Part shown: piece by piece, positions 9,927 through 42,690 of the stretch
Layout of the letters: each line of letters begins with the position of its first letter
Position numbering within the stretch: the stretch's first letter is position 1
Source: Escherichia coli
GTDB lineage: Bacteria > Pseudomonadota > Gammaproteobacteria > Enterobacterales > Enterobacteriaceae
Reading direction: 5' to 3' (one strand)
Assembly: GCF_030384885.1 (NCBI RefSeq)
Contig: NZ_CP128613.1
DNA: 64,000 nt
Notes under the pieces: model-generated
Seen by the model: only the letters and a program-made list of their open reading frames with translations
Database searches by the model: none
What the model was told of the DNA's origin: nothing
Program-made: the position numbers and the translations under genes

Positions 9927-10070
9927 TTAATCATCAATGGATAATATTATATTTATACAATGAATTCATTGTATAAATATAAAATAATGTGCTCTATCTT
10001 GCTTCGTTTACCCTATAATTAGCGGATTCATCTCACGAGTCACCCAGTAACGTTCAGAGAGCGTTTTCAG

Positions 10071-13162: not shown

Positions 13163-14251
13163 ATGCCTCACAATCCTATCCGCGTCGTCGTTGGCCCTGC
13201 TAACTACTTTTCTCATCCCGGCAGTCTCAATCACCTGCATGATTTTTTCACTGATGAACAGCTTTCTTGCGCAGTGTGGATCTACGGTGAACGTGCACTT
13301 GCCGCGGCGCAAACCAAACTTCCAACGGCGTTTGAACTGCCAGGAGCAAAGCATATTTTGTTTCGCGGTCATTGCAGTGAAAGCAATGTGCAACAACTGG
13401 CGGCTGAGTCCGGTGACGATCGCAGCGTGGTGATTGGCGTCGGCGGCGGCGCACTGCTCGACACCGCGAAAGCCCTCGCCCGCCGTCTCGGTCTGCCGTT
13501 TGTTGCCGTTCCAACGATTGCCGCTACCTGCGCTGCCTGGACACCACTCTCTGTCTGGTACAACGATGCCGGACAGGCGCTACATTATGAGATTTTTGAC
13601 GACGCCAATTTTATGGTGCTGGTGGAACCGGAGATAATCCTCAATGCGCCGCAAGAATATCTGCTGGCAGGAATCGGTGACACGCTGGCGAAATGGTATG
13701 AAGCGGTGGTGCTGGCTCCTCAGCCAGAAACGTTGCCACTAACCGTGCGGCTGGGAATCAATAATGCGCAGGTCATTCGCGACGTCTTGTTAAACAGTAG
13801 CGAACAGGCGCTTGCCGATCAGCAAAATCAGCAGTTAACGCAATCATTTTGCGATGTGGTCGATGCGATTATCGCCGGAGGCGGAATGGTCGGTGGTCTG
13901 GGCGATCGTTTTACGCGTGTGGCGGCGGCCCATGCCGTGCATAACGGTCTGACTGTACTGCCACAAACCGAGAAATTTTTCCACGGCACCAAAGTCGCTT
14001 ACGGTATTCTGGTACAAAGCGCCTTGCTGGGTCAGGATGATGTGCTGGCGCAATTAACCGGGGCGTATCAGCGTTTTCATCTGCCGACCACGCTGGCGGA
14101 GCTGGAAGTGGATATCAATAATCAGGCAGAGATCGACAAAGTGATTGCGCACACCTTGCGTCCGGCGGAATCCATTCATTACCTGCCGGTCACGCTGACA
14201 CCAGATACGTTGCGTGCAGCGTTCGAAAAAGTGGAATCGTTTAAAGCCTGA
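13163..14251 (+). CDS. ybdH: iron-containing alcohol/hydroxycarboxylate dehydrogenase family protein
   Basis: 362-aa ORF with GGGxxxD glycerol-dehydrogenase-like motif; recognised as YbdH. Confidence 0.84.
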   Translation: MPHNPIRVVVGPANYFSHPGSLNHLHDFFTDEQLSCAVWIYGERALAAAQTKLPTAFELPGAKHILFRGHCSESNVQQLAAESGDDRSVVIGVGGGALLDTAKALARRLGLPFVAVPTIAATCAAWTPLSVWYNDAGQALHYEIFDDANFMVLVEPEIILNAPQEYLLAGIGDTLAKWYEAVVLAPQPETLPLTVRLGINNAQVIRDVLLNSSEQALADQQNQQLTQSFCDVVDAIIAGGGMVGGLGDRFTRVAAAHAVHNGLTVLPQTEKFFHGTKVAYGILVQSALLGQDDVLAQLTGAYQRFHLPTTLAELEVDINNQAEIDKVIAHTLRPAESIHYLPVTLTPDTLRAAFEKVESFKA

Positions 14252-14260
14252 CGTACAAAT

Positions 14261-14458
14261 TTAGCAGCAGCGCGCGCCGCCTTTTCCACCGTAGCGCGCG
14301 TCCTGCCGCTCACGGAAAAACTCCTCGTAGGTCATCGGCGTTTGATCGGGATGGTTAACCCGCATATGTTCGACATAGTTGTCGTAATCAGGCATACCAA
14401 TCATCAGCTTCGCCGCCTGACCTAAATATTTTCCGGCTTTTGCCAGTGAATCAAACAT
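14261..14458 (-). CDS. ybdD: small DUF466-family protein co-transcribed with cstA
   Basis: 65-aa ORF recognised as YbdD; immediately downstream of cstA on the same strand. Confidence 0.75.
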
Positions 14459-14599
14459 CAATACCTCCGGTAATCAGGTTGCTGAGAGAGTGCATTAATA
14501 GCTATCAACGCGCTCGGTCAGTCCCCTCGCCCCACCGGGGAGAGGGTTAGGGTGAGGGGGAACCCCAGGCACTACGCCAACATCCCCCTCACTCTGACT

Positions 14600-16705
14600 T
14601 TAGTGCGCGCCTTTCGCCTGCGCCTCGATCTCCTCGACATTTTCCGGCATTGGCTCATACGGCGTTTCTTTCGCCGTTGGCTTCGGATCTTTCAATGCTG
14701 CCAGTGCCGTCTTAATCGAGAACAGCGCCAGAACCACCACAACCACCATAAAGAAGATGGTTAATCCGGCATCCAGACGGTTGTTGAACACCAGTTGCGC
14801 CAGTTGTGACTCAGTATACTGCGACGGAATATTGCCGCTGTCGATCATTGCCTGGAACTTGTTAGCAATCGCCAGAAAACCGACTTTCGCATCCGGGCTA
14901 AACGCTTTCTGCCAGCCTGCGGTCAGGGTACAAATCAGCAGCCAGGCCGTTGGTACCAGCGCCACCCAGGCGTAACGTTGACGTTTCATCTTGAACAACA
15001 CCACGGCACAGAGCATCAGCGCCATCCCTGCCAGCATCTGGTTGGCAATACCAAACAGCGGCCACAGAGTGTTAATACCGCCCAGCGGATCGACCACGCC
15101 CTGATGCAGAAAGTAACCCCAAGCCAGCACGCACAGCGCCGTTGCCAGCAGGTTAGCAGGCAGTGAATCGGTCCGTTTCAGGCCCGGAGAAACCACGCCC
15201 AGCAGATCCTGCAACATAAAGCGCGCAGCACGCGTACCCGCATCCACCGCCGTCAGAATAAACAGTGCTTCAAACAGAATGGCGAAGTGATACCAGAACG
15301 CCACATCCATCATGCCACCCAGCGCGCCGTGCAGAATGTAGGCCATCCCCACCGCCAGGGTCGGCGCACCGCCCGCACGGGAAATGATCGACTGTTCACC
15401 CACTTCGCTGGCAATCTGATTTAACGTATCTGGCGTAATGCTAAAGCCCCAGCTACTCACTACCTGCGCAGCAGATGCCACTACATCCGCCGTCCCCGCC
15501 GGAGCCAGCACCGCCATCGGGCTGTTCATCGCGAAGTACACGCCCGGATCGATGATACAGGCAGAAACCAGTGCCATAATCGCCACGAAGGATTCCATCA
15601 ACATCCCGCCGTAGCCGATAAAGCACGCCTGACCTTCGTTCGCCAGCATCTTCGGTGTGGTGCCGGAAGAGATCAGCGCATGGAAGCCAGACACCGCGCC
15701 ACAGGCGATAGTAATAAACAGGAACGGGAACAGATTACCGGTCCATACCGGGCCAGTGCCATCTACAAACTTGGTCAGCGCAGGCATGGTCAGCGTCGGA
15801 CGCATAATCAAAATGCCTACCGCCAGACCGACGATAGTCCCGATTTTCAGGAAGGTAGAGAGGTAGTCACGCGGAGCCAGCAGCAACCACACCGGCAGAA
15901 CCGCCGCCACAAAACCGTAACCCACCAGCATCCAGGTCAGCTGCACGCCGGTAAAGTCAAAGTACGGTGCCCAGGTCGGGCTTTCTGCCACCCAGCCGCC
16001 AGAGATAATGGCGAAAATAAGGAATACCAGGCCAATCACCGACACTTCCCCAATGCGGCCTGGACGCAGATAGCGCAGGTAAATCCCCATGAACAGCGCC
16101 AGCGGAATGGTGAACGCAACGGTATACGTTCCCCACGGGCTATGAGTCAGGGCTTTCACCACGATCATCGCCAGTACTGCAAGAATAATGACCATGATCA
16201 TAAAGCAGGCCACCAGCGCAATCACCCCGGCGGTTGGCCCCATCTCTTCTTTAACAAGCTCGCCCAGCGAGCGACCGTCACGGCGCGTGGAAACAAACAG
16301 CACCATGAAATCCTGCACCGCACCGGCGAGAACCACCCCGGCAAGTAGCCAGATCATCCCCGGTAGGTAGCCCATTTGCGCTGCCAGTACCGGCCCCACC
16401 AACGGGCCTGCTCCGGCAATGGCCGCAAAATGGTGACCGAACAGCACTTTCTTGTCCGTCGGCACATAGTCCAGCCCGTCGTTATGGCGCACCGCTGGCG
16501 TCATACGCGTCGGGTCAACCGCCAATACATTTTTGGCGATATAAAGACCATAAAAACGGTAAGCGATCAGATAGATACAGACCGACGCCACCACAATCCA
16601 CAGCGCGTTGATCTGTTCCCCACGATTTAAAGCAATGTATCCCAGAGCAAATGCTCCCATTACAGAGAGCACTGTCCAGACGAGGTATTTCCCTGATTTG
16701 TTCAT
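14600..16705 (-). CDS. cstA: carbon starvation protein A (peptide/pyruvate transporter family)
   Basis: 701-aa polytopic membrane protein recognised as CstA. Confidence 0.92.
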   Translation of the reverse strand: MNKSGKYLVWTVLSVMGAFALGYIALNRGEQINALWIVVASVCIYLIAYRFYGLYIAKNVLAVDPTRMTPAVRHNDGLDYVPTDKKVLFGHHFAAIAGAGPLVGPVLAAQMGYLPGMIWLLAGVVLAGAVQDFMVLFVSTRRDGRSLGELVKEEMGPTAGVIALVACFMIMVIILAVLAMIVVKALTHSPWGTYTVAFTIPLALFMGIYLRYLRPGRIGEVSVIGLVFLIFAIISGGWVAESPTWAPYFDFTGVQLTWMLVGYGFVAAVLPVWLLLAPRDYLSTFLKIGTIVGLAVGILIMRPTLTMPALTKFVDGTGPVWTGNLFPFLFITIACGAVSGFHALISSGTTPKMLANEGQACFIGYGGMLMESFVAIMALVSACIIDPGVYFAMNSPMAVLAPAGTADVVASAAQVVSSWGFSITPDTLNQIASEVGEQSIISRAGGAPTLAVGMAYILHGALGGMMDVAFWYHFAILFEALFILTAVDAGTRAARFMLQDLLGVVSPGLKRTDSLPANLLATALCVLAWGYFLHQGVVDPLGGINTLWPLFGIANQMLAGMALMLCAVVLFKMKRQRYAWVALVPTAWLLICTLTAGWQKAFSPDAKVGFLAIANKFQAMIDSGNIPSQYTESQLAQLVFNNRLDAGLTIFFMVVVVVLALFSIKTALAALKDPKPTAKETPYEPMPENVEEIEAQAKGAH

Positions 16706-21714: not shown

Positions 21715-21742
21715 ATCATCCTCCACAAAATGATAAAGGCTT

Positions 21743-21761
21743 TAATAATGATTATCATTTA
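21743..21761. promoter_or_regulatory. Fur box in divergent entC / fepB promoter region
   Basis: aataatgattatcatttat closely matches the Fur consensus GATAATGATAATCATTATC. Confidence 0.6.
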
Positions 21762-21902
21762 TATTTTCGGTCGCTAACCTAAAAGCAAACGAGCACTATG
21801 TCAACTCTTGAGGTAACGCAATCTGCAAGTCGGGGTTGCATCTGCTTGTGGTTACAATGAAAATGAGAAGCATTAACTTCATTAATAACAGGAAGCTGAT
21901 TT

Positions 21903-28159: not shown

Positions 28160-28325
28160 GCGGTATAACCTGAAATGGGTCCAATAAGAGTAAATCTCCA
28201 CGGCCCCCACTTTACCAGTTGGTGAGATTTATCCGAAGCTGAAGTTTGTAAATTCCTCCCACTGAATGCAACATTCACTCTATTTCAGAGAAATATCCGT
28301 TAAATTGATAAATTAAATAAATAAT

Positions 28326-28358
28326 AAACCCATAATCATTTATTGTAATTATGGGTTT
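28326..28358 (-). terminator. AT-rich hairpin between entF and fepE (possible terminator/attenuator)
   Basis: perfect 11-bp inverted repeat aaacccataat / attatgggttt with 11-nt loop, U-rich tract downstream on the minus strand. Confidence 0.35.
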
Positions 28359-28373
28359 ATAGATAATATAAAT

Positions 28374-42653: not shown

Positions 42654-42690
42654 AAAAAACCGCTCTCATCGAATGGATGAGAGCGGTTTA
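42654..42690. terminator. bidirectional intrinsic terminator between convergent mscM and pheP
   Basis: A-run, 11-bp stem ccgctctcatc / gatgagagcgg with 5-nt loop, then T-rich. Confidence 0.6.

Follow-up and report, generated by a model that had tools for sequence, protein, structure and literature searches.

A single family of G-rich repeats has been described in enterobacterial genomes under several names: BoxC (Bachellier and colleagues, 1990s), PIT, for potential intrastrand triplex (Hoyne & Maher 2000/2002), and TMECO (Holder 2015, PMC4666352). HPG1/HPGQ is the same sequence family viewed as a putative G-quadruplex (Kaplan 2016, PMC5100583). BoxC is a non-autonomous repeat that is dispersed through the intergenic regions of Enterobacteriaceae. 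Copies are divided by their second loop into type A (TTA) and type B (CCG), with mm marking one mismatched triplet, and type A mm is the commonest subtype in K-12 (Holder 2015, PMC4666352). In the same study the copies had no consistent orientation, gene distance or gene class, and TMECO loci were more variable than control intergenic sites; the term 'palindrome effect' was used there for the hairpin-only remnant products.

The structural properties of the repeat have been studied in vitro. Consensus oligonucleotides form an intrastrand purine triplex, as observed by CD and NMR (Holder 2015, PMC4666352), and a G-quadruplex or a hairpin depending on the ion (Kaplan 2016, PMC5100583). The triplex was not detected by DMS footprinting in vivo, and a duplex forms when the complementary strand is present (Holder 2015, PMC4666352). 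Reporter tests of PIT elements by Hoyne & Maher, in so far as they are relayed by Holder 2015 (PMC4666352), revealed activity neither as promoter nor as terminator, and RNA polymerase was unaffected.

The element that we describe here resembles BoxC/PIT/TMECO in being intergenic and multi-copy, with shared flanks, an inverted pair with a conserved spacer, and a locus that varies between strains. It also resembles the REP/BIME elements, being likewise palindromic, short and dispersed, situated between tandem genes, variably present between strains, and able to give RNA hairpins lacking a U-tract; blocking of exonucleases and damping of read-through would be a plausible role in both cases. To our knowledge no dedicated transposase (RAYT) exists for BoxC, and we know of no demonstration that BoxC has a regulatory effect.

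We have analyzed a window of 64,000 nucleotides of Escherichia coli DNA that includes the spacer between cstA and ybdD. The pyruvate/proton symporter gene cstA occupies 14600-16705 on the minus strand, with its stop codon at 14600-14602. It is followed on the same strand by ybdD (14261-14458), with an ATG at 14456-14458 and a Shine-Dalgarno sequence GGAGG within 14459-14475; a TTG at 14459-14461 that appears in the list of open reading frames is not the annotated start. YbdD is a small protein that works with CstA (Hwang 2018). An earlier reading made from the sequence alone had described the two genes as co-oriented, which is correct, and had supposed them to be co-transcribed. The latter is not the view of RegulonDB, which, in the portion quoted by Kaplan 2016 (PMC5100583), lists cstA and ybdD each as a single-gene operon. 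Hwang 2018 and Gasperotti 2020 are silent on direct evidence of co-transcription, and no full-length cstA-ybdD transcript was found in the SMRT-Cappable-seq and TERMITe supplements, which mention neither gene. A promoter scan found no sigma-70-like promoter for ybdD.

The spacer contains a perfect 10-bp inverted repeat, in which GTGAGGGGGA (14552-14561) pairs with TCCCCCTCAC (14583-14592) around a loop of 21 nt (14562-14582), and the G/C tracts CCCCTCGCCCC and GGGGAGAGGG lie immediately upstream of it. Both had been noticed in the sequence-only reading, and the coordinates proved to be exact. Pairing can be extended to 16 nt with two mismatches (88% complementarity), so that the complete arms on the plus strand are 14546-14561 on the ybdD side and TCCCCCTCACTCTGAC at 14583-14598 on the cstA side. 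An inner mini-hairpin GGCA...UGCC is predicted within the loop. A perfect 10-bp hairpin is by itself weak evidence, because dinucleotide-preserving shuffles yield 1.7 perfect hairpins of at least 10 bp per window, compared with the 12 observed. The stem is nevertheless present in four other Escherichia species-level genomes, and this conservation, together with the match to the BoxC consensus described below, led us to reject a chance repeat. The stem-loop in the cstA-ybdD spacer is a real feature. The window has further long perfect inverted repeats at 9947-9982 (16 bp, AT-rich), 42657-42689 (14 bp), 28324-28360 (13 bp, AT-rich) and 2964-2991 (11 bp, GC-rich). Two small plus-strand open reading frames across the element (14440-14550 and 14552-14764) arise incidentally from the repeat and from cstA sequence read antisense.

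The ybdD-side arm belongs to a larger sequence. Positions 14524-14558 (+) exactly fit the BoxC pattern CCCTCNCCC-N3-6-GGGNGAGGG-N3-GGGNGAGGG[G/T/C/-], with a G at 14559. This 35-nt pattern has one match in the 64-kb window and 0 in 100 shuffles. The core (14524-14559, plus strand) comprises block 1 CCCTCGCCC (14524-14532), followed by the loop CACCG; block 2 GGGAGAGGG (14538-14546), followed by the loop TTA (14547-14549); and block 3 GGGTGAGGGG (14550-14559), which with the next GA provides the perfect part of the stem arm. Since the second loop is TTA, and block 1 CCCTCGCCC stands opposite GGGAGAGGG with one mismatched triplet, the copy is of type A mm. An ungapped comparison of 13 type-A copies, that of the window and 12 from K-12, shows that what they share extends beyond the 36-nt core. 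About 20 nt are conserved to the left of block 1 (consensus AAaAa.G.GC.CG.aCgGTC), corresponding in the window to the flank ATCAACGCGCTCGGTCAGTC at 14504-14523 (+), which adjoins the block, and about 14 nt are conserved past block 3.

The other half of the stem is explained by the way in which BoxC copies are paired. Several type-A copies in K-12 face a type-B copy on the opposite strand, with the third blocks pointing together across a conserved spacer. The 21-nt loop of the window, AACCCCAGGCACTACGCCAACAT, is homologous to the right flank and is recognizably related to the paired-copy spacers of K-12, AACAGGCCAGCACTGGTGCGAACATT. In the K-12 pairs the partner starts ACCCTCACCCC, at a distance from the type-A copy equal to that of the window's cstA-side arm. 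That arm, CCCCCTCAC, corresponds to a partner start, with a stub of about 9 nt (CCCCTCAC) that ends 1-8 nt before the cstA stop codon. We regard it as practically certain that the G-rich stem-loop represents a BoxC copy to which the stub of an inverted partner is attached. From these alignments the stem-loop is identified as the center of a degenerate BoxC pair, consisting of one full copy, a spacer and the 9-nt stub, and the region from about 14504 to 14598 as a degenerate composite BoxC element. The BoxC-derived part then makes up about 95 of the approximately 140 nt of the spacer. The 10-bp stem had been taken as the unit, and this has to be revised; it is really the junction between block 3 and the stub. 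In contrast to the BoxC family as described, the window retains only about 9 nt of the partner, and the pair survives as a central hairpin plus one full copy.

The sequence-only reading had listed a small dispersed repeat among its options and proposed a search for the motif elsewhere in the genome. Such a search finds BoxC-like matches in 5425 of 5426 complete E. coli genomes, the median number of places being 18, with 11 places in the genome closest to the window; these counts are approximate, as they come from a loose blastn search (E<=10) with an 82-nt query. The dispersed-repeat option is therefore well founded.

Both the repeat family and the copy at cstA-ybdD are already in the literature. 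The K-12 copy between these genes is HPGQ 19, with midpoint 632058 on the minus strand (Kaplan 2016 Table 1, PMC5100583). An identical 36-mer, CCCTCGCCCCACCGGGGAGAGGGTTAGGGTGAGGGG, is recorded in LF82 (604718-604683) and NRG857C (600518-600483) as TMECO nos. 264 and 543 (Holder 2015 Table S8, PMC4666352). These positions fall within our BLAST matches to the cstA-ybdD spacer in the two genomes. A search of the supplements of Holder 2015 by gene name returned nothing, and it was the search by sequence that found the 36-mer. The K-12 copy is absent from the table of 23 in that study because its block 3 reads GGGTGAGAGGG. RefSeq annotates nothing at the site in the window, and both the BoxC and the REP of the K-12 spacer are likewise unannotated. 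Since the family and this copy have been published, the element carries little weight as a discovery. Its practical use lies in annotation: such G-rich palindromes, where they occur in enterobacterial spacers, should be labeled BoxC/TMECO and not presented as new regulators.

We may now ask at what level the element might act. The copy contains a G-quadruplex motif, GGGGAGAGGGTTAGGGTGAGGGGG, at 14537-14560 (+), preceded by the C-rich CCCTCGCCCC. It has four G3+ tracts, short loops and a 5' C-rich tract, as in HPG1, which is the same family seen from the G-quadruplex side. It is the sole (G3+ N1-7)x4 motif in the 64-kb window, and lies on the template strand of cstA and ybdD. The copy differs from the triplex-forming consensus oligonucleotides only in loop 1. 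One explanation is thus that the element works as DNA: the G-rich strand, when single, would fold into a purine triplex or G-quadruplex, stall polymerases and provoke rearrangement, the RNA hairpins being incidental. The folding of the oligonucleotides in vitro, the variability of TMECO loci relative to controls and the position of the window's only G-quadruplex motif at the BoxC copy agree with this, as does the polymorphism of the cstA-ybdD locus itself, which at the DNA level is a hotspot of small insertions and deletions. Yet the triplex escaped detection in vivo, and hairpin-only alleles that have no potential for either structure are found in four outgroups and account for 22% or more of E. 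coli. We therefore consider an action at the DNA level rather unlikely, while giving it more weight than any of the other alternatives discussed below. Moreover, unlike the HPG1 switch, a quadruplex here could form only in DNA or in antisense RNA. The cstA/ybdD mRNA carries the C-rich strand, and thus neither a G-quadruplex nor a purine triplex is possible in that RNA.

The variation at the locus is extensive. At least seven alleles are present in eight sampled E. coli genomes, and a 539-bp query over the locus gives matches of 510-580 bp. The differences consist of a 12-bp duplication within the loop, a REP that is present or absent, mutations in the blocks and loss of the core. The window-type allele, taken as coverage of at least 80% of a 138-nt query, occurs in 374 genomes. 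K-12-type alleles have an extra REP element and the loop duplication, which is the 12-bp tandem repeat GGATGTTGGCGA; on alignment of K-12 (L001 632000-632181) with window positions 14459-14599, a canonical REP is seen between BoxC and ybdD. One E. coli allele lacks 7 nt of the core. The EC2257-type allele lacks the core altogether while keeping the hairpin and the BoxC left flank, and, with an identity of at least 95%, is found in 1189 of the 5426 genomes. In EC2257 itself (L006 198-309) the REP is also missing, and the hairpin kept on the ybdD-proximal side is AAGCCCTCTTAATTCAGGAGGGCATTTG, which closely resembles the single hairpin in the Citrobacter and Salmonella spacers. In the KKa019-type allele only the hairpin and a REP are present. 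The same arrangement is seen in E. albertii and E. whittamii and in two more Escherichia genomes.

The window allele itself is unrelated in sequence to REP. It lacks the motif GCCGGATAAGGCG...GCATCCGGC, and the REP consensus palindrome GCCGGATAAGGCG...CGCATCCGGC is absent from its spacer. The REP of the K-12 and outgroup spacers appears as an extra block of 29 nt, part of a REP of about 38 nt. A third stem-loop predicted for the window allele, CUGACCGAGCGCGUUGAUAGCUAUUAAUGCACUCUCUCAG (14482-14521, minus strand; palindrome search, RNA fold and K-12 alignment), occupies the site of this REP.

The hairpin is retained throughout, and its cstA-side arm does not vary among the 12 Escherichia sequences compared (8 E. 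coli and 4 outgroups). Since hairpin-only alleles have been kept, what is conserved at the locus is the hairpin between the two facing ends of the BoxC pair, and not the three-block motif with its triplex or G-quadruplex potential. This goes beyond what the literature has reported.

The direction of change is less straightforward. The four outgroups share the junction CCCCT(C/T)ACTCTCAGC, and in the outgroups and in KKa019 the hairpin-only forms share the junction CTCTCAGC followed by the REP; the common junction favors an old hairpin-only state. A simple gain of a full copy is opposed by the left flank without a core in EC2257, and by the BoxC-derived loop of the hairpin. This loop and this flank show that the hairpin-only forms are themselves BoxC remnants. 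The hairpin-only state of the outgroups and of the KKa019 and EC2257 types suggests that the hairpin predates the full copy, or at any rate does not depend on it. Most E. coli may either have kept the full copy or have regained it, perhaps through gene conversion with the remnant as anchor. The AAGCCCTCTTAATTCAGGAGGGCATTTG hairpin of EC2257, which is similar to BoxC blocks 1 and 2, may represent the ancestral structure in the enterobacteria. No clean filled-versus-empty junction was found at this locus among the E. coli alleles and Escherichia outgroups compared. A second difference in BoxC presence occurs in the fepB-entC spacer (window 21727-21902, junction about 21872-21876). It lacks a segment of about 186 bp in which K-12 has an inverted BoxC pair (TMECO 7/8 = HPGQ 17/18), and the gap is bounded only by TAA-type microhomology.

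Structures in the same spacer were also compared across other genera. Full BoxC pairs are present in Enterobacter, Leclercia, Lelliottia, Phytobacter and Pluralibacter. In six sequences (L018, L021, L064, L067, L068 and L074) the pairs have the opposite arrangement, with the first blocks facing. As orthologous spacers hold complete pairs, a single intergenic site carries BoxC in several genera, arranged unlike that of Escherichia. The Citrobacter and Salmonella spacers have simple CCCTCTCC/GGAGAGGG hairpins, those of Atlantibacter (GACUCCCCGGCUUAACGGCUGGGGAGUUUUUGG) and Buttiauxella have canonical terminators, and those of some other genera have REP-like palindromes. A stable hairpin of one kind or another (BoxC, REP-like or terminator-like) is thus kept here by nearly every Enterobacteriaceae genus examined.

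The terminators of Atlantibacter and Buttiauxella raise the question of whether the strong GC-rich stem directly 3' of the cstA stop codon is itself a Rho-independent terminator, or an attenuator, separating cstA from ybdD. It has the position and the GC-rich stem of an intrinsic terminator. However, the loop is 21 nt long and there is no U-tract: CCUAACCC follows the stem on the mRNA strand, where the tail reads CCUAACC, and the antisense tail is UCUGACUUUAG, with only UUU there. The stem is thus not an intrinsic terminator. A scan of 14100-14900 for terminators was negative on both strands, and PIT elements lacked terminator activity in the reporter tests as relayed by Holder 2015 (PMC4666352). 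The sequence-only reading had already doubted a simple terminator, and on this it was right. Its attenuator option fares badly, as we see no credible Rfam family and no sign of a ligand- or leader-type switch. An Rfam scan of 13800-15200 at permissive E-values gave sub-threshold chance matches only, the best of which was an unrelated frameshift element from eukaryotes, at 21.2 bits (E = 0.13) where the threshold is 40. Termination or attenuation at this hairpin is accordingly a reading in which we place next to no belief.

We then consider the RNA. The sense transcript of the spacer folds with a calculated free energy of -62.9 kcal/mol (z = -2.95). Two adjacent GC-rich hairpins are predicted straight after the cstA stop codon, first GAGUGAGGGGGA/UCCCCCUCAC and then CCCUCUCCCC-GGU-GGGGCGAGGG, with the weaker stem-loop at 14482-14521 as the third. 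Where an allele lacks the core, the sense RNA forms the more stable hairpin, by a margin of 4-13 kcal/mol over the antisense. Natural variants in the stem include five that form a G.U wobble in the sense RNA and a mismatch in the antisense, and two for which the reverse is true; the excess could arise from a C-to-T mutation bias on the C-rich arm, and not from selection.

Term-seq data are available for K-12. Supplementary files 1 and 3 of Adams 2021 place a sense 3' end at 632098(+), which is 10 nt beyond the hairpin of the BoxC copy. By homology this corresponds to the window's position 14513 (minus strand), the K-12 allele differing in having also a REP and a mutated block 3. It is a small peak of 1686 reads, found in one of three conditions, LB at OD 2.0 (Adams 2021), the stationary-phase condition at which cstA is induced. 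At lldD, a 'primary' Term-seq 3' end in K-12 lies 3 nt past the hairpin of a BoxC copy in the same orientation. For two K-12 type-A copies, RNA 3' ends are thus found 3-10 nt after the hairpin. The sequence-only reading had suggested an element of RNA processing or stability. The position of the cstA 3' end lends this some support, and the negative PIT reporters count against it.

A possible mechanism is provided by REP elements, among which the repeat REP325 of yjdMN is documented as a stabilizer and partial terminator (bioRxiv 10.64898/2026.03.23.713779). The likeliest role of the two spacer hairpins would be that of REP hairpins in 3' UTRs. They would block 3'-to-5' exonucleases, thereby defining and protecting the 3' end of cstA, and perhaps provide a weak factor-dependent pause site. 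As no U-tract follows the hairpins, polymerase would continue into ybdD, and the read-through would tune the ratio of CstA to YbdD rather than switch either gene. In our judgment there is close to an even chance, perhaps slightly less, that a hairpin barrier sets or protects the 3' end of the cstA mRNA while allowing read-through into ybdD. That the published 3'-end maps show RNA ends just after two BoxC hairpins is a modest addition to what has been written on the repeat, and it hints at such a role in mRNA stability or read-through; the earlier reporter assays may have missed it.

The antisense strand offers another explanation. The gene hcxA (13163-14251, plus strand) converges on ybdD, with 9 nt between the stop codons (14251-14261). 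No terminator is predicted between hcxA, which ends at 14251, and ybdD, ending at 14261, and hence read-through from hcxA would be antisense to the whole of ybdD. The hairpin might then mark the end of such transcripts, which would be stopped by Rho inside the 3' end of cstA and trimmed back to the stem, making this a bidirectional element. A Rho region antisense to cstA has been reported in K-12, with its peak at 631994(-) (Rho score 4.49, p = 8e-6; Adams 2021). This is 13 nt past the stem, at about 14605(+) of the window, a position that is imprecise because the score uses coverage in 800-nt windows. In the window allele the plus-strand hairpin is the more stable (-34.3 versus -26.8 kcal/mol). 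Nevertheless, no Term-seq 3' end is listed on the antisense strand in K-12 (Adams 2021), and the antisense hairpin is much weaker in alleles without the BoxC core. Such a marking of hcxA read-through seems improbable to us.

It might also be supposed that the element is a neutral relic, a decaying selfish or passively copied repeat of no consequence for cstA, ybdD or hcxA. BoxC is unbiased in orientation, gene distance and gene class, and this lack of consistent placement speaks against selection of the family for a general function. The reporter assays, as relayed by Holder 2015 (PMC4666352), were negative, and many alleles coexist within E. coli. A relic does not readily account for the retention of some stable hairpin in nearly every genus examined, for the invariance of the cstA-side arm within Escherichia, or for the coincidence of RNA 3' ends with two BoxC hairpins, and we find it more improbable still than the antisense end-marker. 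Returning to the hairpin barrier in the cstA mRNA, a broader proposal would be that the center of the BoxC pair has been taken over as a conserved 3' UTR structure of cstA across Escherichia and that, generally, BoxC hairpins transcribed as the C-rich strand set mRNA 3' ends. This wider proposal is speculative and on balance doubtful. If true, a repeat that has been classed as 'function unknown' for 30 years would gain a role like that of REP, adjusting the relative expression of neighboring genes, here CstA and YbdD.

Searches of phage and plasmid sequences revealed no meaningful association of BoxC with mobile elements. Matches in phages were essentially absent (3 records), and the E. coli 'plasmid' matches listed are mostly to chromosome-sized or very large records. 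The Campylobacter phages A18a and A11a (MG065686.1 and MG065691.1) contain a 59-nt match with 90% identity to an E. coli BoxC unit, which one would not expect in phages of Campylobacter and which suggests contamination or misassembly of the records. Outside Enterobacteriaceae, plasmid matches are found in Rhizobium, Sinorhizobium, Azospirillum and Shinella. More than 200 alphaproteobacterial megaplasmids or chromids match a 95-nt BoxC query at 74-90%, often several times per record, and the degree of similarity points to a repeat of G/C blocks that would be either related or convergent.
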